Source: Patescibacteria group bacterium (lineage in GTDB: Bacteria; Patescibacteriota; Minisyncoccia; Phycocordibacterales; SBAW01). From it: DNA of 61,654 nucleotides. Location: the NCBI GenBank assembly GCA_019752125.1, contig JAIEMM010000007.1:1-61654 (forward strand), in the 5' to 3' direction. The notes under the pieces are model-generated. The model worked only from the letters and a program-made list of their open reading frames with translations. It searched no databases and was not told where the DNA came from. Below, in pieces: positions 7,813 to 59,019 of the stretch. Position 1 is the stretch's first letter. Each line of letters opens with the position of its first letter. Position numbers and translations under genes: made by a program.

Positions 7813-10647
7813 ATGGAAAAATACAATCACAAGGAGATAGAAAAGAAGTGGCAGAAGCGATGGGAAGAATCGCAGTTGTATAAAACATCGGAAGATCCGA
7901 ACAAACCAAAAACCTATGTGCTCGACATGTTTCCGTACCCGTCAGGGGAAGGGTTGCATGTTGGCCACCCAAAAGGGTATATCGCAACTGATATTTACTC
8001 ACGTTTCAAGCGTATGCAAGGTCACAACGTACTCCACCCAATGGGATGGGATGCCTTTGGCCTGCCTGCAGAAAACTTCGCAATCAAGAACAAAATCCAT
8101 CCTCGCATTGCAGTTGAGAAAAACATCGCAACGTTCAAAGATCAATTGTCACACATTGGTTTTAACTACGACTGGTCTCGCGAGATAAATACGACTGATC
8201 CTGAATACTATAAATGGACGCAATGGATCTTCCTCCAGCTCTATAAGAAGGGCTTGGCGTATCAGTCAAATGAACCAATCAATTGGTGCCCTTCGTGTAT
8301 GACAGGTCTCGCGAATGAAGACTTGGATGGCAATGTGTGTGAACGCTGCGGCAGCGAAGTTGAAAAACGCGCGCTCCCACAGTGGGTGCTCAAAATCACT
8401 GCCTATGCAGACCGCATGCTTACCGACTTGGACGCGCTCGACTGGCCAGAACATATCAAAACCGCGCAGCGCAACTGGATAGGTAAGAGCGAAGGATCAG
8501 AGATTGAATTTGCGATCGCTGGCAGCGATAAAAAGGTAAAAGTATTTACCACCCGCGCTGACACATTATTTGGCGCAACATTTTTGGTGCTTGCTCCTGA
8601 ACACCCCCTACTTCGCCAAGGCTTCGCAGGGCAAGCTCTCGAAAATCAAAAAGAAGTTGATGAATATATTGCCAAAGCTGCTGCAAAAACAGAAATTGAA
8701 CGTACGAATGTTGAGAAAGAAAAGACTGGCGTAGAACTTAAGGGTGTTAAGGCAATCAATCCCGTAAACAATACAGAAATCCCAATATATGTTGCCGATT
8801 ATGTGTTAACTGGATACGGCACCGGCGCCATTATGGCCGTACCTGCTCACGACGACCGCGACGCTGCATTTGCAAAAAAGTTTGGAATCGAAATACGTGA
8901 CGTTATCTCACAAAAGTTTGATCTTGAAGGAATGCATGCTGAGCGCCCGGATGTCGAAACAATCACTCGTATAGTAGTCGATCCTATCCTTAGAGATAAA
9001 GATAATAATTTTTATCTTATAAAAGAGGGGTCGGAACACGTTCATTTTGCGGGTGGTGGTGTCGAAGAAGGAGAAACTGATGAAGAAGCCCTTGCTCGAG
9101 AAATCACAGAAGAAACAGGATTCACTGATTTTACAATTGGTAGAAAAATACTCCCAAATTCATCTGTTTGGGGTTATCGACATACAAAAAATAAAAACCA
9201 ACGTTCTGTAGGTTACGCGTACGAAGTCGTACTACATTCGGACACTAGGGTACATTCGGAAGTCGAGGATGGAAAACATGAGCTCGTAAAAGTCTCAAAA
9301 GATAAAGTGCTGGAGACTATTACGTGGCCGCATCATAGGTATTTGTTCGAGCAATACTTGGATGAGAAATTCTTTACTGATGATGGAATTCTTATAAATT
9401 CTGGTAATTTTGACGGCCTAACTTCGAAAGAGGCAAGAGTAAAAATTACAGAAGCTGTTGGAGGCAAGATGACTTCAACGTACAAGATTAAAGATTGGGT
9501 ATTTAGCCGTCAGCGATATTGGGGAGAACCTATTCCGATCATTCATTGTCCTAAGGATGGTGCAGTAGCTGTTCCAGATGACCAGCTTCCCGTAACACTT
9601 CCAGAAGTAGAGTCGTATGAACCATCTGGAACGGGCGAGTCTCCACTCGTAAATATTACTGAGTGGGTTAATACGACCTGCCCAACGTGCGGCGGCCCTG
9701 CAAAACGCGAAACAAACACCATGCCTCAGTGGGCAGGTTCTTCGTGGTACTACCTTCGCTTCATGGATCCGAATAACAGCAAGGCGCTTGTTGCACAAGA
9801 CAAAGAGAAATACTGGGCACCTGTGGATGTATACGTCGGCGGCGACCACGCAGTGCGTCATCTTATTTACGCGCGCTTCTGGCACAAGTTCCTCTACGAC
9901 ATCGGCTCAGTTTCTACTATCGAACCATTCGCACGTCTTGAATTCCTCGGATTTATCTTGGCAGAAGACGGTCGCAAGATGAGTAAACGCTACGGCAACG
10001 TCATCGACCCAACTGATGTAGTTGCAACGTATGGTGCAGATGCATTTCGTACCTACGAAATGTTTATGGGGCCGTTTGAAAATACCGTTGCGTGGAGCAC
10101 TTCTTCTATCACCGGCACTGCGCGCTTTATTGAACGTGTATATAAAATTGAACCAGGTTCTACAGAGGTAAAATCTCTCAACCCAATTCTTCATCAAACT
10201 ATCAAGAAAGTTACGGAAGATATTGAAGCATTCAAATTTAATACAGCCATCAGTCAAATGATGATACTTCTGAATGCTATTGAGAAAGAGGCATCTGTAG
10301 GTAAAGAACAATGGGAAAATTTCTTGAGAATACTTGCGCCATTCGCTCCTCATGTAACTGATGAACTCTGGGAAAAACTTGGTCACACAGAATCAATTCA
10401 TCTTTCGACCTGGCCAGTATATGATCCTGCAAAAACAGTTGCCGATACTGTAACGGTCGCAATTCAGGTAAATGGGGTCACAAGGGGATCTATAGATTTA
10501 CCAAAGAATGTTCTTCAGCAAGACGCACTTCTGGAAGCAAAGAAAGTTGTTGAAAAATGGCTTACACAGGAGGTAATTCGAGAAATATACGTACCTGGTA
10601 GGATAATTAACTTTGTTATGGTGTCTCCCCACACCACGGCTTTGTAG
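7813..10647 (+). CDS. leuS: Leucine--tRNA ligase with inserted NUDIX domain
   Basis: MFPYPSGEGLHVGH (HIGH), FTTRADTLFG, GTGAIMAVPAHDDRD editing motif, KMSKR. Confidence 0.98.
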   Translation: MEKYNHKEIEKKWQKRWEESQLYKTSEDPNKPKTYVLDMFPYPSGEGLHVGHPKGYIATDIYSRFKRMQGHNVLHPMGWDAFGLPAENFAIKNKIHPRIAVEKNIATFKDQLSHIGFNYDWSREINTTDPEYYKWTQWIFLQLYKKGLAYQSNEPINWCPSCMTGLANEDLDGNVCERCGSEVEKRALPQWVLKITAYADRMLTDLDALDWPEHIKTAQRNWIGKSEGSEIEFAIAGSDKKVKVFTTRADTLFGATFLVLAPEHPLLRQGFAGQALENQKEVDEYIAKAAAKTEIERTNVEKEKTGVELKGVKAINPVNNTEIPIYVADYVLTGYGTGAIMAVPAHDDRDAAFAKKFGIEIRDVISQKFDLEGMHAERPDVETITRIVVDPILRDKDNNFYLIKEGSEHVHFAGGGVEEGETDEEALAREITEETGFTDFTIGRKILPNSSVWGYRHTKNKNQRSVGYAYEVVLHSDTRVHSEVEDGKHELVKVSKDKVLETITWPHHRYLFEQYLDEKFFTDDGILINSGNFDGLTSKEARVKITEAVGGKMTSTYKIKDWVFSRQRYWGEPIPIIHCPKDGAVAVPDDQLPVTLPEVESYEPSGTGESPLVNITEWVNTTCPTCGGPAKRETNTMPQWAGSSWYYLRFMDPNNSKALVAQDKEKYWAPVDVYVGGDHAVRHLIYARFWHKFLYDIGSVSTIEPFARLEFLGFILAEDGRKMSKRYGNVIDPTDVVATYGADAFRTYEMFMGPFENTVAWSTSSITGTARFIERVYKIEPGSTEVKSLNPILHQTIKKVTEDIEAFKFNTAISQMMILLNAIEKEASVGKEQWENFLRILAPFAPHVTDELWEKLGHTESIHLSTWPVYDPAKTVADTVTVAIQVNGVTRGSIDLPKNVLQQDALLEAKKVVEKWLTQEVIREIYVPGRIINFVMVSPHTTAL
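8606..8635. repeat. 30-nt palindromic element in frame in leuS (LRQGFAGQA)
   Basis: 20/30 nt identical to 24597-24626, with compensatory stem changes. Confidence 0.7.
8915..9370 (+). other. NUDIX hydrolase domain inserted in LeuRS (boundaries approximate)
   Basis: Exact Nudix box G-x5-E-x7-REITEETGF at 9055-9123, between IRDVIS and the LeuRS FTDDGILINSG segment. Confidence 0.9.
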
Positions 10648-14555: not shown

Positions 14556-15617
14556 ATGTTTGGGAAGAATAAGGGAAAAGTATTTGTAGGCCTCTCGGGG
14601 GGTGTAGATTCCGCTGTTTCTGCGGCTCTTTTGCAGTCGCAAGGATACGACGTAACAGGCGTATTTATTAGGATTGCCTTGCCCGGATACCCATGTTCAG
14701 CGGGAGCTGATCGTATTGATGCAATGCGCGTTGCTACCCACCTTCAGATTCCATTTTTGGAAATCGACCTATCTGAGTCATACGCAAAAGAAGTGTTCGC
14801 CTCATCCCTTAGTGGATTTAAAAAGGGGAGGACGCCTAACCCAGACACTCTCTGCAACCGTGAAATAAAATTCGGTGCATTTTTTAATTTCGCAATGGAG
14901 CAAGGTGCAGATTTTGTTGCCACAGGACATTATGCGCAGACAAAAGACGGGTTGCTCTATGCAGGAAAAGACCCCTCAAAAGATCAAAGCTATTTTCTGT
15001 GGATGGTGAAGAAGGAAATACTTGAGAAAACTATATTTCCTGTTGGTAATTTGGAGAAAACAGAGGTGCGTGCACTCGCGGAGAAATTCAAACTTCCAAA
15101 TGCTCGCCGCAAAGACAGTCAGGGATTGTGCTTCTTGGGAGAGGTTTCTATAGAAGATATGCTCCATAAAGAATTGAGTCCTGTGCCCGGCGATGTCCTT
15201 TCGGAAACTGGGGAAGTGATTGGCCGTCATGAGGGCACGCCTCTCTATACGCTTGGGCAAAGACATGGTTTTACACTTTCCTCACAGACACCCGACACAA
15301 AAGCCCACTTTGTTATTGAAAAAGATATTGAATTCAACACCATTACTGTCTCAACAGAGCGGTTCCCTCATGGTGTAACAAAAACAGACGTTACGCTTAT
15401 AGAAACTAATTGGATAGGGGAATTACAGGCGAGGTCGGACCTTGCCGCCCAATACCGTTACCACCAAACGCTTATCCCAGTGGAGATTGTAGGGGAAACA
15501 CACGTAGTACTTGGGCAACCTCACTACATGCCGCTAGGTCAATCACTCGTTTTATATACAAAAGAAGGCAGATGTCTTGGTGGAGGTATTGTTGACAAGT
15601 CAGATCTCACTGCATAG
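14556..15617 (+). CDS. mnmA: tRNA 2-thiouridine synthase MnmA
   Basis: SGGVDS, TPNPDTLCNREIKF, ATGHYA, KDSQGLCF. Confidence 0.97.
   Translation: MFGKNKGKVFVGLSGGVDSAVSAALLQSQGYDVTGVFIRIALPGYPCSAGADRIDAMRVATHLQIPFLEIDLSESYAKEVFASSLSGFKKGRTPNPDTLCNREIKFGAFFNFAMEQGADFVATGHYAQTKDGLLYAGKDPSKDQSYFLWMVKKEILEKTIFPVGNLEKTEVRALAEKFKLPNARRKDSQGLCFLGEVSIEDMLHKELSPVPGDVLSETGEVIGRHEGTPLYTLGQRHGFTLSSQTPDTKAHFVIEKDIEFNTITVSTERFPHGVTKTDVTLIETNWIGELQARSDLAAQYRYHQTLIPVEIVGETHVVLGQPHYMPLGQSLVLYTKEGRCLGGGIVDKSDLTA
15429..15445. repeat. Short palindrome within mnmA CDS (ARSDLA)
   Basis: GCGAGGT-CGG-ACCTTGC; 15/17 match to reverse complement of 2376-2392. Confidence 0.6.
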
Positions 15618-24498: not shown

Positions 24499-25509
24499 AT
24501 GGCAGGGCTGTTTTCGAAGCAGGCTCCTATGGGTATAGGAAAGACCGTTCTTCTCGTTGATATTGAGAACGGTTCTGTTGGCTGTGCGTTGGTGCACCTG
24601 CCTTCGCTGAAGCTGCGGCAGGCAAGTCTGTCTACTGGCAAAGAGCTTCCAAAACTTTTTGCAGAGACGCGAGTTGCCTTGCCAATGATGCGTACGCTCG
24701 ACCTCGAGAAGCTTATGAAGGAAACCGATACTGCCCTTCGCGAAGCGCTTACGCACACTAGCGTTACGGCAGCTCGTATGCGCACCCATGCAAAGCTTTC
24801 ACATATCGGAGCAATACACTCAAGTGCCGTATTTATTTCAGCACCTTGGACTGCCGCACGTACTCAAAACGGCGAACTAGACTGGGAAATCGAATCTGAA
24901 CTCCAAAGCCATATTAGCCGTGCAATTGCCGATACTTTTGGCGATATAGCTATTTCTTTTTACGCCACAAGCGCTGCGGTAGCCCACGCTACAGGCCATT
25001 TATTTGAAACTGCCCCACATCTCTTACTGACTACAATGACAGGAGAGGTCACAGAACTTAGTGTGCTTGAAGATGGCAAACTGACTGCACGAGCAACTAT
25101 TCCTTTCGGTAAACATTTTTTTCTGCGTACACTTTCAAGCCATGCAGGGCTTAGTTACCCAGAGGCTCACTCAGCGCTACGTCTTGCGCGAGGCTCGAAC
25201 ATAGAAACTCCTGTGGAAGAGGCTCTGTATGCCGCAGGTACTCAATTTGCTAGTAACTTTGCAACTGCGGCACAAGAGCTCCATGCGGACAACTCGCCTC
25301 ATGGCATTTTAGTTGTTGCCCAAGAACCAATGGGCGAATGGCTTGTGCAAATGCTTGTAGGACAGGAGGCCCTTACAAAAAGTTTCTCTCAAGGCACCAC
25401 TGTACAGGCTCTCCATACCCACCATGTTATGCCGTATCTCTCAGCCCACGCAGCAAAGCCAGATATCGTCTTTATGGTAGAGGCGCTGTTTATTAATCGA
25501 ATGATATAA
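24499..25509 (+). CDS. Hypothetical actin-fold (FtsA/PilM-like) protein
   Basis: LLVDIENGSV phosphate-1-like motif; ATIPFGKHFFLR..SSHAGLSYPEAHS segment resembling the FtsA/PilM IPFGG motif and following helix. Confidence 0.6.
   Translation: MAGLFSKQAPMGIGKTVLLVDIENGSVGCALVHLPSLKLRQASLSTGKELPKLFAETRVALPMMRTLDLEKLMKETDTALREALTHTSVTAARMRTHAKLSHIGAIHSSAVFISAPWTAARTQNGELDWEIESELQSHISRAIADTFGDIAISFYATSAAVAHATGHLFETAPHLLLTTMTGEVTELSVLEDGKLTARATIPFGKHFFLRTLSSHAGLSYPEAHSALRLARGSNIETPVEEALYAAGTQFASNFATAAQELHADNSPHGILVVAQEPMGEWLVQMLVGQEALTKSFSQGTTVQALHTHHVMPYLSAHAAKPDIVFMVEALFINRMI
24597..24626. repeat. 30-nt palindromic element within CDS (LPSLKLRQAS)
   Basis: CCTGCC/GGCAGG stem; homologous to 8606-8635 but read in another frame. 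Confidence 0.7.
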
Positions 25510-36870: not shown

Positions 36871-36966
36871 AGCTCAGGAAGAGGTTTTTGTTGCAGCATC
36901 CGTTCATGTAGTCCCATATATGGGACCGTTTGCGATACGTGGGAAAGTTGTTAGAATGGGTCTAAG

Positions 36967-39666: not shown

Positions 39667-41004
39667 ATGCAACGGACACTTATAGGCGATTTGGGCGCGC
39701 ACAAAGGAGAAGAGGTAACCATTAAGGGCTGGGTCAGCGTGCGCCGCGACCAGGGCAAGATGGTGTTTTTTGATTTTCGCGATCGCTCGGGAACTGTACA
39801 GGGTGTCGTGCTTCCTCCGCCAGCTGGCGGACTCGCAACTATGGAGATTGCAAAAGAAATTCGCAACGAATATGTCGTTTCAGTAGATGGCAAAGTAAAT
39901 GCCCGCCCAGAAAAAAACGTTAACTCAAAAGTTCAGAACGGTGACATTGAACTTGAAGTAATGGGCATTACTATTTTGGCAAAAGCAGAGCCGCTTCCAT
40001 TCGATATGTCAGTAGATGGCTACAATCTCGACCTCACAACTGAACTCGACCATCGCGCACTTACACTCCGCCACCCACGCCTCCAGGCTATCTTTAAAGT
40101 GCAGGCCGTTATCATCGACTCGTTCCGTGAATACATGAAGTCTCAGGACTTTATGGAATTCCAAGCACCTGCAATTACACCAGCAACCGCAGAAGGCGGA
40201 GCAGAAGTATTCCAAGTTCAATACTTCGACAAGAAAGCATACCTCACACAGTCGCCACAGCTCTACAAGCAAATTGTGATGACTGCGTTTGAACGCGTGT
40301 TCTCAGTAAACAAAGTATTCCGCGCAGAACCATCTGCAACCACGCGCCATATTACAGAAATCGTTTCTCTCGATGCCGAAATGGCATTTATCGAATCGTG
40401 GACGGATGTACGTGATATGTCTGAAGAGACAGTACGTTTTGTACTCCAGCAGGTAGAAAAGAAATGCGCCCGCGAACTCGAAGTGTTGGGTGCAGTACTT
40501 CCAACAATGATAGAAAAGACTCCAACATATTCTCTTACTGAAGCGTTTGCAAAACTCGGTGTTCCAGAAGATAAAGATCTTAATCCAGAACAAGAACGTA
40601 AGCTGTGCGAAATAGTAAAAGAAGAAACTGGTTCTGACTTTGTATATGTCTACGGCTATCCAACAATGAAGAAGCCGTTTTACGTATATCCAAACCCAGA
40701 GAATCCAGAATTTAACGAAGGTATGGACCTTCTATGCCGCGGTGTTGAATGGCTCTCAGGCGGCCGCCGCGTAAACGACTACGCACAGCTTATGCAACAT
40801 GTCGAAAAGTGGGGGATGGATCCTAAGAAAATCGAAATGTTCCTCGAAGCCTTCCGCTATGGCGCACCACCCGAAGGCGGCTTTGCTTTGGGTGCTGAAC
40901 GCATGACCATGCAGATCCTCGGCCTCAAAAACATCCGTGAAGCAACTCTCTTCCCACGCGACATGAACCGCATCGACTTGCCGCTTTCAGAGACTGAGAT
41001 TTAA
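39667..41004 (+). CDS. aspS: Aspartate--tRNA ligase, archaeal-type (likely non-discriminating)
   Basis: OB fold GWVSVRRDQGK, EGGAEVF, QSPQLYKQ, FRAE, GGFALGAER, FPRD; about 445 aa without GAD domain. Confidence 0.93.
   Translation: MQRTLIGDLGAHKGEEVTIKGWVSVRRDQGKMVFFDFRDRSGTVQGVVLPPPAGGLATMEIAKEIRNEYVVSVDGKVNARPEKNVNSKVQNGDIELEVMGITILAKAEPLPFDMSVDGYNLDLTTELDHRALTLRHPRLQAIFKVQAVIIDSFREYMKSQDFMEFQAPAITPATAEGGAEVFQVQYFDKKAYLTQSPQLYKQIVMTAFERVFSVNKVFRAEPSATTRHITEIVSLDAEMAFIESWTDVRDMSEETVRFVLQQVEKKCARELEVLGAVLPTMIEKTPTYSLTEAFAKLGVPEDKDLNPEQERKLCEIVKEETGSDFVYVYGYPTMKKPFYVYPNPENPEFNEGMDLLCRGVEWLSGGRRVNDYAQLMQHVEKWGMDPKKIEMFLEAFRYGAPPEGGFALGAERMTMQILGLKNIREATLFPRDMNRIDLPLSETEI
39816..39831. repeat. 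Perfect 16-bp palindrome TCCGCCAGCTGGCGGA in aspS (PPAGG)
   Basis: Identical copies at 41124 and 43449. Confidence 0.9.
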
Positions 41005-41019
41005 GCCTATAATTAGGCT

Positions 41020-42450
41020 ATGAAATTCCAAACGACTCCTGCAAAGGATGCTATTACTGTTGATTTTATTGAAGGCTCGCTGAATCGTTTTGATGGAAAA
41101 ACTCTCTCTATCGGATATGGTAATCCGCCAGCTGGCGGAAAGCCGCTTAACCGTCGCAAATTTGTTTTGTTTACCCGTAAAGTTGTCTCAACCGCAAAAC
41201 AGAATAAACTAAAAACTATTTCTGTTGATTTTAAGAGTCTGAAATCAATCGCTCCAAAAGATTTCTCTGATGCAGAGGTTGCAAAAGTAGCTGCTACATC
41301 GTTTGTAATGGCGGACTACGAACACAATACATATAAGCGCAAACCAAAGGACGGCTTCGCACGTGTTGAAGTGGTGTGTTTATTGAACGCATCTAAAGAA
41401 GCTATTGAAGGTGCGAAGAAGGGCCACTGGATAGCAGAGGAAGTAAATGCCTGCCGCGAGTTGGCAAACACTCCGGGCGGTGACTTAACTCCGAAACAAT
41501 TTTCTGCACTCGCAAAGAAAACTATTAAGGGTGCAGATACTAAAGTTACTGTACTTGGCCGCAAAGAAATGGAGAAACTCGGCATGGGTGGAGTTGTCGG
41601 CATTGGCAAAGGCTCAGACAATGAGCCGCAGTTTGTTGCCGTTGAATATTGGGGGGCCAGCCCCTCGACAGGCTCGGGGCGATTAAAACCTGTGGTTTTA
41701 ATCGGTAAAGGCGTAACGTTTGACTCAGGAGGCCTTAACTTGAAACCAGGCGACCACATGTACGAGATGCACATGGACATGTCGGGCGGGGCAGCAGTGC
41801 TCTATACCGTTGCGCTCGTAGCAAAACTTAAATTGAAAGCAAACGTTGTCGGCCTTATCCCAACTGTAGAAAATATGCCAGGCCAGCACGCAGTCCGCCC
41901 AGGCGACATGCTCAAGTCTATGTCTGGCCGCCACATTGAAGTACTTAACACAGACGCAGAAGGTCGCGTTATCTTGGCAGACGGTATTACCTACGCGAAG
42001 AAATACAACCCTGCAGTTGTTGTAGATGTTGCAACACTCACTGGTGCGGCACTCACAGCTCTCGGTACCCAGTGTTCAGCAGTAATGACTAACGACCAAA
42101 AGCTTGAAGACACACTTCGCGCGCTTGGAGAAGAGTCTGGCGACTATGTCTGGCCATTCCCAGTCTGGGAAGAATACGAAGCAATGACTAAAGGAATCTT
42201 CGGCGATGTTCCAAACATCTCAACAGACGGAAATAGCCGCTATGGAGGGGTTATTGCAGGAGGCATGTTCCTACATGAATTTGCGAAGGATTTGGACTGC
42301 CCATGGGCCCACATAGACATGGCCCCTCGTATGACATCAACTCCAGGCGAACACCTCGCTAAAGGCGCTGTAGGGGCTCCTGTGCGTCTTCTTTTGGCTC
42401 TTGTAGAACGCTACGCCCTCGGCCATAGCCCTACGGGCGAGGCAAAATAA
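41020..42450 (+). CDS. pepA: Leucyl aminopeptidase (M17)
   Basis: GKGVTFDSGG, MHMDMSGGAAV, NTDAEGR, DVATLTGA. Confidence 0.96.
   Translation: MKFQTTPAKDAITVDFIEGSLNRFDGKTLSIGYGNPPAGGKPLNRRKFVLFTRKVVSTAKQNKLKTISVDFKSLKSIAPKDFSDAEVAKVAATSFVMADYEHNTYKRKPKDGFARVEVVCLLNASKEAIEGAKKGHWIAEEVNACRELANTPGGDLTPKQFSALAKKTIKGADTKVTVLGRKEMEKLGMGGVVGIGKGSDNEPQFVAVEYWGASPSTGSGRLKPVVLIGKGVTFDSGGLNLKPGDHMYEMHMDMSGGAAVLYTVALVAKLKLKANVVGLIPTVENMPGQHAVRPGDMLKSMSGRHIEVLNTDAEGRVILADGITYAKKYNPAVVVDVATLTGAALTALGTQCSAVMTNDQKLEDTLRALGEESGDYVWPFPVWEEYEAMTKGIFGDVPNISTDGNSRYGGVIAGGMFLHEFAKDLDCPWAHIDMAPRMTSTPGEHLAKGAVGAPVRLLLALVERYALGHSPTGEAK
41124..41139. repeat. 16-bp palindrome copy in pepA (PPAGG)
   Basis: Identical to 39816-39831. 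Confidence 0.9.
41660..41680. repeat. 21-nt hairpin within pepA CDS (SPSTGSGR)
   Basis: GCCCC/GGGGC and CGA/TCG stems in a loop just before the conserved KPVVLIGKG. Confidence 0.55.
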
Positions 42451-42870: not shown

Positions 42871-43614
42871 ATGCCGATAAACGTAAAAACTGATGTATTT
42901 GAAGGGCCGCTGGACCTACTTCTTGAGCTTATAGAAAAGCGCAAGCTGCTTATTAACGATGTCTCACTCGCGTCGGTTACTGATGAATACATCGCGCGAA
43001 TCTCAGGGAATGAATTGCCTGTAGGGGAGACAGCTGAGTTCGTTGCACTCGCTGCAACACTGCTTCTTATTAAATCCCGCTCGCTTCTGCCAACTCTCGA
43101 GCTTTCTCCGGATGAGTCAAAAGATATTAAGGAACTTGAATACCGCTTAGCGGTGTACCAACTTATCAAAGAGGCGGCGAGAGGTGTTAGTAGTTCACTA
43201 GAAAACGCTCCGCTCTACGAAGGCAACCCGCCTGCAGTTGAACCAATGTTTTTATTTGATACATCTGCAACATTGGAGTCGCTTCGTGCATCTATTCAAA
43301 AGGTTATAGAAGAATTCCCTGTACAAATTTCTCTACCAAAAGTAGCAGTGAAGAAAATTGTTTCTATTGAAGAAATGATCCAGAAAATGGCGGGCAGAGT
43401 GTCATCTGCATTCAGTGTTTCTTTTAAGGAATTCTCCGGGTTAAACAATCCGCCAGCTGGCGGAAGGGGTGAACATATTAAACATGAAATAATTGTGAGT
43501 TTTCTAGCACTCTTAGAGTTAGTGAAGCAGGGTATAATTAAAGCACATCAGGGCGATCACTTTAGCGACATCACGCTTGAGTCCGATGCTGTATCTACAC
43601 CAACCTATGAATGA
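42871..43614 (+). CDS. scpA: Segregation and condensation protein A (kleisin)
   Basis: FEGPLDLLLELI, AATLLLIKSRSLLP, IIVSFLALLELVK. Confidence 0.95.
   Translation: MPINVKTDVFEGPLDLLLELIEKRKLLINDVSLASVTDEYIARISGNELPVGETAEFVALAATLLLIKSRSLLPTLELSPDESKDIKELEYRLAVYQLIKEAARGVSSSLENAPLYEGNPPAVEPMFLFDTSATLESLRASIQKVIEEFPVQISLPKVAVKKIVSIEEMIQKMAGRVSSAFSVSFKEFSGLNNPPAGGRGEHIKHEIIVSFLALLELVKQGIIKAHQGDHFSDITLESDAVSTPTYE
43449..43464. repeat. 16-bp palindrome copy in scpA (PPAGG)
   Basis: Identical to 39816-39831. Confidence 0.9.
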
Positions 43615-58609: not shown

Positions 58610-59019
58610 CTTCTAGCCCATCTCTGGGCGAGAAACACAGACAGCGGAACCAGTGTTGTTAACTGGAGCAATGGAGAAAGGCCTACGTGAAAAAGCGTGG
58701 GCATTGCTGTTGTATAGGCCCATGTATGCAGAGCCATTGCTTTATATTCAACCAGCAACGCAACAACAAACCCGCCAACTCCCAAAGCAGCGTAGTGGCG
58801 TATATACCAAGGTCCGACCTCGCCAGAACATAGAACCACAAACGTGGTAATCAACACTGTATACAACACATCTCCAGAGGTAGCCCAGAGAATGAGTGGC
58901 CAGCCACTCCCCAACTGCTCATACCCTGTATAGAGAGGCAGGTGCAGATACTCCCAAACCAGGTTAAAGGCAAAGGACAGAGCAACAACGGCTGCTATAA
59001 ATTTACTTGCTATGCGCAT
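58606..59019 (-). CDS. Hypothetical membrane protein (4 TM)
   Basis: [12 protein letters not shown]...GD; VEYKA..W.Y..MP...GLSPLLQ. Confidence 0.75.

Follow-up and report, generated by a model that had tools for sequence, protein, structure and literature searches.

Two protein-coding genes of a 61,654-nt contig from a Patescibacteria group bacterium (GenBank assembly GCA_019752125.1, contig JAIEMM010000007.1) each contain a 30-nt palindrome, and the two palindromes resemble one another while being read in different frames. This raises the question of whether one dispersed DNA motif has been written into both proteins and, if so, what has spread it. We refer to the whole contig as the window; it is contig C5 of the source genome, G000, whose assembly comprises 702 kb in 14 contigs. 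Repeats were sought throughout this assembly by a Hamming scan and by two covariance models: R1, built from eight sites of G000, and R2, trained solely on 45 copies from other genomes and on none from G000. E-values from both short-calibrated models are approximate. The two sites and their host genes are as follows.

7813..10647, + strand: leuS, encoding leucyl-tRNA synthetase (LeuRS, 944 aa), assigned with Pfam and aligned to the T. thermophilus and E. coli LeuRS structures; host of copy 1
8606..8635, + strand: element copy 1, CCCTACTTCGCCAAGGCTTCGCAGGGCAAG, in leuS at codon offset 1, read as LLRQGFAGQ(A) directly after APEHPL in the editing domain; R1 E 5e-7, R2 E 1.4e-8
24499..25509, + strand: gene for a 336-aa conserved hypothetical protein (the 24499 protein), present in 25/31 relatives; host of copy 2
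24597..24626, + strand: element copy 2, CCTGCCTTCGCTGAAGCTGCGGCAGGCAAG, in the open reading frame at 24499-25509 at codon offset 2, read as (L)PSLKLRQAS; R1 E 5e-7, R2 E 2e-4

The window sites belong to a dispersed hairpin repeat

The original prediction, made from the letters of the window alone, had paired these sites because they share 20 of 30 bases at differing codon offsets. The sequences are as it described, and the outer stem of copy 2 (CCTGCC/GGCAGG) is perfectly paired. Taken alone, the pair is at chance level: 33% of random 30-mers from the window find a partner of at least 20/30 within it, and the hairpin energies at the two sites are ordinary compared with shuffled sequence (z -0.05 and -1.2).

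The observation is nevertheless confirmed at the level of the family. The Hamming scan recovered a 29/30 twin of the leuS copy in a XerD gene (C4:4570), together with a set of sites similar to CCCTCCTTCGCTAAAGCTACGGAGGGCA, and R1 returned eight sites in G000 at E <= 2e-6, the following match having an E-value of 0.01. When R2 was run on the whole of G000, the leuS site ranked first (E 1.4e-8) and a site spanning 24593-24630 was recovered at E 2e-4; since R2 had been trained without G000 copies, its recovery of both window sites is an independent membership test. In addition, a search of a species-representative genome collection with the exact 26-nt pattern CCCTNCTTCGCYAARGCTWCGNAGGG yielded at least 120 loci containing 125 element copies (hereafter the cross-phylum set), compared with ~0.03 expected by a composition-free estimate. 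The reading that the two window sites resemble one another by chance, or through a common protein motif, is refuted by the 29/30 twin, the exact loci and the R2 scores, and because the reading frames differ, protein homology is excluded; we therefore give it virtually no credence. Both window sites are members of one genuine dispersed 30-nt hairpin DNA repeat, of which the window contains exactly two copies. Among the eight copies in G000, four are intragenic, in LeuRS, the 24499 protein, a XerD-type recombinase and the N-terminal linker of a P-type ATPase, and four are intergenic, one of them immediately upstream of tRNA-Pro. The search pattern originally suggested for the family, CTTCGCN7CGN4GGCAAG, matches neither window site, and a loosened version matches those two only.

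Both stems of the hairpin covary

The consensus of the element is CCCTNC TTCGCY AA RGC TWCG N'AGGG CA(A/C)G, which forms a 6-bp outer stem and a 3-bp inner stem. Across the 45 copies from other genomes, 93.6% of pair cells were standard and eight of the nine pairs had altered on both sides, a result that none of 500 shuffles equalled and no slid register approached; at the fifth position of the outer stem, all four pair types occur. The inner stem (GCT/AGC or GCC/GGC) was 100% paired (T-A 24, C-G 19), even though it lies outside the model from which the alignment was made. The covariation of the closing stems first noticed between the two window sites thus holds over the foreign copies. The interior of the hairpin (TTCGCYAARGCTWCG) is better conserved than the outer stem, which suggests that the folded single strand may be recognized in a sequence-specific manner. 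The GCC..GGC subfamily lacks the TAA stop that is present in one frame of the GCT..AGC subfamily.

Copying of the element as DNA

Copies of the element occur in at least five reading frames, in both orientations inside genes, and also between genes. About half of the 45 copies in relatives lie deep in open frames, 13 along the direction of the gene and 12 opposite to it, and the peptides that they encode recur (PxFAKATEGK, LLRQGYEGQ or LLRQGFxGQ, PTSLKLRRA or PSLKLRRA, ALRSFSEVG and PFEALAKKG). In the 24499 protein, the element corresponds to an 11-aa insert, PSLKLRQASLS, that was missing in all 17 same-genus orthologues compared, while the G003 orthologue carries two additional copies at other positions. 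The gene had been taken for a core gene; it is instead hypothetical, with no relative of the protein found in Pfam, NCBIfam or the PDB, and is conserved at the level of the genus rather than being universal.

The twin of the leuS copy lies on another contig.

C4:4036-4980 (L255:1237-2181), - strand: gene for a XerD-type recombinase, carrying the 30-nt element (PYSAKASQGK) and a PPAGG palindrome

The 29/30 identity between the leuS and XerD copies stops exactly at the CCCT... and ...CAAG borders, so that the copied unit is 30 nt, or ten codons. The loop of XerD that contains the element (...G-P-KGS-S-L...) is free of inserts in 110 of 120 close homologues, and the remaining ten have inserts in the same loop. 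At the DNA level, the element is read there forward in frame f0 (PYSAKASQGK), in reverse (PFEALAKKG) and in reverse in another frame (PRSLGGVG), the reverse frames being r2 and r0; one forward and two reverse readings amount to at least three independent events.

Elsewhere in G000, on the minus strand of C4:42095-42165 (L258:500-570), one copy is nested in another (C4:42121): a complete copy of 31 nt occupies the apical loop (TTCGC|TAAAGC) of a more degenerate one, and this nested pair directly follows the stop codon of a gene. Some copies are old: one occupies the same site of one gene in two species, and the tRNA-Pro copy is shared as well. Taken together, these observations show that the element is copied as DNA, and its intragenic copies are translated as roughly ten extra residues in tolerant loops. 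The proposal of DNA-level spread in the manner of Rickettsia palindromic elements (RPEs), rather than of protein homology, is thus borne out by the number of frames, the two orientations, the intergenic copies and the inserts in the 24499 protein and XerD.

In other XerD homologues, this loop has an additional insert that recurs (…SGPTQGKSQTAILT… / …QSPTQSKSPNALLT…); it may stem from one more repeat.

Replacement of native codons in LeuRS

The closest relative of the leuS product, P0003 (LeuRS 91% identical), has no element. Compared with P0003, 18 native nucleotides of leuS are replaced by 30, for a net gain of 4 aa (HPL-VRELPI-QN to HPL-LRQGFAGQAL-EN), and the native CCG CTT GTG CGC GAA of P0003 leuS resembles the 5' half of the element. 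The linker that holds the element differs in length by 0-12 aa from relative to relative, and the segment exceeds its T. thermophilus LeuRS counterpart by only 3 aa. A clean insertion was rejected on account of this variable length and of the exchange of 18 nt for 30 nt; judged from the alignments, the event is a replacement within a variable-length linker. XerD displays a similar pattern of replacement with microhomology. Where the original prediction expected indels of 9-10 aa in both window proteins, the 24499 protein has an 11-aa insert and LeuRS a net gain of 4 aa.

In the LeuRS homologues P0013, P0008 and P0093, the element occupies the identical site with differing, compensated stems. 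A FastTree phylogeny built with the insert columns removed placed the window LeuRS, P0008 and P0013 in three separate supported clades, P0013 forming one long branch. The LeuRS loop and the XerD loop were each hit independently at least three times.

LeuRS also carries a larger insert. Residues 387-512 (window 8971-9348), which follow the editing domain, are an inserted NUDIX hydrolase domain (Pfam E 1.6e-10). A NUDIX insert of ~150 aa is present in LeuRS of some relatives (G004, G006, G018, G023 and others), while other relatives have forms of about 760-820 aa without it, and certain LeuRS homologues list alpha/beta-hydrolase or HAD domains in its place.

Distribution across genomes and phyla

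Thirty relatives of G000 carry 0-21 copies apiece, and the distribution is patchy even inside the genus. We additionally surveyed 201 genomes from 152 genera of the same order, counting element matches at E <= 1e-4; the genomes surveyed are mostly metagenome bins. The element was present in 49 of the 201 genomes (24%) and in 41 of the 152 genera, at 1-22 copies each. Exact copies span more than ten phyla, with hosts among Alpha-, Gamma- and Deltaproteobacteria, Verrucomicrobiota (including Akkermansia), Bacteroidota, Nitrospirota, Planctomycetota, Acidobacteriota, Myxococcota, Omnitrophota, Elusimicrobia, Dependentiae and many Patescibacteria. They occur also in isolates (Mesorhizobium, Taklimakanibacter) and in complete chromosomes, and the twelve cross-phylum genomes that we scanned contain 1-32 copies each. 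A phage collection of 50,697 records gave no element match and plasmids gave just five weak partial matches, so neither resembles a vector.

Within the cross-phylum set, 17 of the 125 copies lie no more than 60 nt from a tRNA gene, compared with about 1.5% expected, and several abut or overlap a tRNA 3' end (the loci near tRNA genes include L131, L176, L205, L210, L211, L221, L225 and L236, among others). Full-text searches of an open-access library, covering both the motif itself and comparable elements, gave no description of the element sequence.

At the Taklimakanibacter locus L225, four copies are interspersed among clustered tRNA genes and longer ATCCTGCTTCGCG...CGCGAAGCAGGAT hairpins. 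At eight loci from Nitrospira and Deltaproteobacteria (L151, L161, L165, L167, L182, L189, L216 and L231), the element sits within a longer conserved context, …GAAATTCTCCGAAGCC…[element]…TTCTCCTCGCCTTCATCCCCG…, that is common to both phyla and hints at a larger composite unit.

A small GIY-YIG nuclease gene accompanies the hairpin

In three Patescibacteria (G003, G170 and G178) and a deltaproteobacterium (G035), a small GIY-YIG nuclease gene is preceded, at a distance of 10-110 nt, by the element on the other strand. The hairpin-linked nucleases are single-domain GIY-YIG proteins of ~80 aa that form one clade with the C-terminus FE.YLK.GSGHAFA.(R/K)H, for which NCBIfam holds no named family. 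A profile made from three of these proteins was run over that set of 201 genomes. Of the 15 loci that scored highest, 13 had a hairpin (E <= 0.01) no more than 150 nt upstream of the start, in many cases as an inverted pair, compared with only two of the next 15, generic GIY-YIG loci. A nuclease of the same clade also starts 5-90 nt away, in the antisense geometry, at 13 of the at least 120 cross-phylum loci, the hosts being Mesorhizobium isolates, Xanthobacteraceae, Hyphomonadaceae, Rhodospirillales, Akkermansia, Opitutia, Rikenellaceae and Saccharibacteria. The antisense upstream arrangement therefore holds in Patescibacteria, Alpha- and Deltaproteobacteria, Verrucomicrobiota and Bacteroidota.

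Nuclease gene and hairpin also co-occur across genomes. Without phylogenetic correction, the element was present in 12/15 nuclease-bearing genomes compared with 37/186 others (odds ratio 16, p 3.5e-6), the association persisted when the gene-adjacent copy was excluded (odds ratio 8, p 2.5e-4), and the mean number of copies was 5.8 with the nuclease and 2.6 without it (p 0.004). G000 has no member of the clade, and its eight copies are accordingly read as orphans, which we infer to be left over from past nuclease activity.

Several hairpin-linked GIY-YIG genes contain an in-frame stop codon, at L156 (Akkermansia muciniphila), L192, L137 and L265 (G035), for example MYYV*... and ...PWKM*, which points to frequent decay of the nuclease gene and survival of the hairpins.

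How the hairpin may have spread

Ssn GIY-YIG nucleases, first described in 2025, cut single-stranded DNA beside hairpin repeats (NTS/dRS3, 'SRM') that flank their genes and are dispersed genome-wide, and many such nuclease/hairpin pairs are said to await discovery (Chenal et al. 2025, PMC11893778). By analogy, the explanation towards which we lean, with modest confidence, is that the 30-nt element is the cognate hairpin of an Ssn-like small GIY-YIG nuclease, that the G000 copies are orphans, and that the element has spread by copying during break repair. The small nuclease probably recognizes the hairpin, its putative recognition motif. A nuclease of the clade would make a single-strand break; repair of the break would then copy from another hairpin copy, by conversion or by template switching at microhomology; and copies that are in frame and located in loops would alone survive selection. 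Break-repair copying at microhomology would account for four observations, namely that native codons are replaced, that targets are not duplicated, that the same loops recur as sites and that one copy is nested within a hairpin loop, and we infer that nuclease-triggered conversion or template switching is the favoured route.

Several points weigh against this explanation. The co-occurrence statistics take no account of phylogeny, and 37 of the 49 hairpin-bearing genomes of the order, G000 included, have no nuclease, yet G000 has a recent-looking 29/30 pair. The nuclease clade matches Pfam GIY-YIG, and its nearest solved relatives are UPF0213 proteins (1zg2, 1ywl). None of the eight G000 copies or the 125 cross-phylum copies fits the published search motif for SRM repeats, HGTCWYN(0-2)YYVSBRHN(0-5)WNVSBRGN(0-2)RNCYNB on either strand with 15-nt flanks. 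The element folds with modest stability (-4 to -6 kcal/mol as DNA, z -0.4 to -2.2), and since fold energies do not separate the hairpins from shuffled sequence, the structural evidence consists of the covariation. The conversion or template-switch step rests on a few comparisons of filled and empty sites between diverged species, and the upstream hairpin could be just an operator or mark the place where a mobile nuclease gene has landed. A bolder version, in which a single module of a ~80-aa GIY-YIG enzyme and a near-unchanged 30-nt hairpin circulates across more than ten phyla, rewriting the same surface loops of the essential proteins LeuRS and XerD by break-induced copying and leaving orphans that outlast the nuclease, is put forward tentatively and may well be too broad; it would amount to hairpin homing, through which a selfish DNA motif turns into protein sequence.

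A transposase offers another way to move a hairpin. In this reading, a RAYT-like Y1 (HUH) tyrosine transposase would act in trans on the single-stranded hairpin and mobilize it as a REP-like miniature element, the adjacency of the nuclease being secondary. PF01797 genes are indeed enriched in element-bearing genomes (40/49 compared with 73/152 others, odds ratio 4.8, p 3e-5, without phylogenetic correction), but this association is weaker than that of the nuclease, which is also physical, and nine element-bearing genomes have no Y1 gene at all. In G000 itself, the single Y1 gene is of class 2, with HUH and Y...NP motifs; the palindrome that lies on either side of it and within it, GAGGTCSGACCTC, is a different one, and no element copy flanks it. 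Two Y1 queries, run by tblastn against the ~8-kb loci that surround the at least 120 cross-phylum copies, likewise gave no Y1 transposase as direct neighbour. REPIN-like adjacent inverted pairs in G003, G004 and G012, and the copy nested within another, would suit such an enzyme, whereas the aligned copies have no conserved GTAG or CGTC foot and the native sequence of leuS was replaced, not simply interrupted. We consider a Y1-driven origin unlikely.

It is less likely still that the hairpin is mainly a signal at the level of RNA or the promoter, serving the nuclease gene as operator or 5' leader, or acting near tRNA genes as terminator or processing signal, with intragenic copies that arise by accident and no copying mechanism dedicated to the hairpin. 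Its fixed position upstream of the nuclease start codon, the excess of copies near tRNA genes and the conserved structure would all be expected of such a signal. Intragenic orientation, however, is random, which makes a purely regulatory role less likely, and copies lie deep within essential genes; the leuS site matched no Rfam family, and no T-tract follows the hairpin on its 3' side. Near-identical copies in one genome and repeated independent hits in the same loops, moreover, require a copying process, for which break repair triggered by the small nuclease remains our preferred candidate.

Comparison with known systems

Like the Ssn systems (PMC11893778), the pair described here combines a small (~80-95 aa) single-domain GIY-YIG gene with an adjoining 20-50 nt hairpin that is dispersed, is found in many phyla and is more numerous where the gene is present. 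Unlike Ssn repeats, which number in the hundreds and flank the gene on both sides, the element has a copy number of 1-32, lies mostly upstream only and antisense, and has many copies in frame inside genes. Its nuclease has the distinctive C-terminus YLKSGSGHAFA and is nearest, among solved structures, to UPF0213.

In-frame palindromes are known from the RPEs of Rickettsia (Ogata et al. 2000, as reported in PMC3733652), from intragenic GTAG/CGTC REPs of Opitutus terrae (PMC3733652, PMC6006769, PMC3116915) and from REP insertions within RAYT genes (PMC6006769). We set the element beside RPEs by description, length and host range. As far as the secondary account describes them, RPEs share with it a palindromic DNA that lies in frame in unrelated, often essential genes, is translated, and is read in different frames. 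In-frame insertion of the RPE type, with element-free orthologues, is seen in the 24499 protein, XerD, LeuRS compared with P0003, and the N-terminal linker of the P-type ATPase. On the same account, classic RPE-1 measures about 100-150 nt and RPEs belong to one genus, whereas the element is 30 nt long and has free-living as well as episymbiotic hosts in many phyla; it also has a linked nuclease gene, recurs in the same protein loops and can replace native sequence.

REPs and REPINs resemble the element in being short (20-40 nt), imperfect and dispersed palindromes, sometimes in inverted pairs and occasionally intragenic in frame, in their statistical co-occurrence with Y1 genes and in keeping the stem by compensatory changes. 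Unlike REPs, the element has no GT[AG]G/CGTC foot, and the four flanking bases on each side are unconserved (8 + 45 copies); GTAG occurs in it solely internally, on the reverse strand of the TACG subfamily. Nor does it form a REPtron, as it flanks no RAYT gene in G000 or at the at least 120 cross-phylum loci. In contrast to lineage-specific REP families, its sequence is almost unchanged across phyla, and about half of its copies in small genomes are intragenic.

What is new is a unit of 30 nt that stays nearly identical from phylum to phylum, its pairing with a specific nuclease, and the repeated hits of replacement type in LeuRS and XerD. A 'selfish' in-frame palindrome, of a kind known from Rickettsia and a few other genera, is now tied to a specific candidate enzyme. 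The pair has a hairpin different from that of Ssn and is present in cultivable Mesorhizobium isolates, which makes it directly testable. Recurrent hits in loops, replacement of codons and conservation across phyla together constrain how such hairpins could spread. Peptides encoded by the element explain recurring odd segments in metagenome-predicted proteins, and masking them should improve alignments and the annotation of small-genome bacteria.

Other palindromes of the genome

The segment at 42421-42443 in pepA, which had been suggested as a degenerate relative of the element, was matched neither by R1 (filters off) nor by R2 and belongs to a separate family.

42416..42444, + strand: hairpin at the 3' end of pepA (…LGHSPTGEAK*), a member of a separate 4-copy family, CCCTCGGCC(A/G)TAGCC..ACGGGCGAGGC, of similar build

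The other copies of this family are at C4:64234, C11:24148 and C11:3851. At the only RAYT-like Y1 gene of G000 (C1:77566-78231), the GAGGTCSGACCTC palindrome occurs before the start, in frame inside the gene (PRGRTSP) and at the stop codon; gene and palindrome form a REPtron-like arrangement whose repeat family is distinct from the 30-nt element. Three more palindrome families have copies in the window: CCGCCAGCTGGCGG (21 genome copies, encoding PPAGG), at 39817-39830, 41125-41138 and 43450-43463; TCCCATATATGGGA (9 genome copies), at 36912-36925; and RAGGTCSGACCTY (26 genome copies, encoding ARSDL, RGRTS or EVGPW), at 15431-15443 and 58809-58821. About half of all copies of these three families lie deep in open frames.

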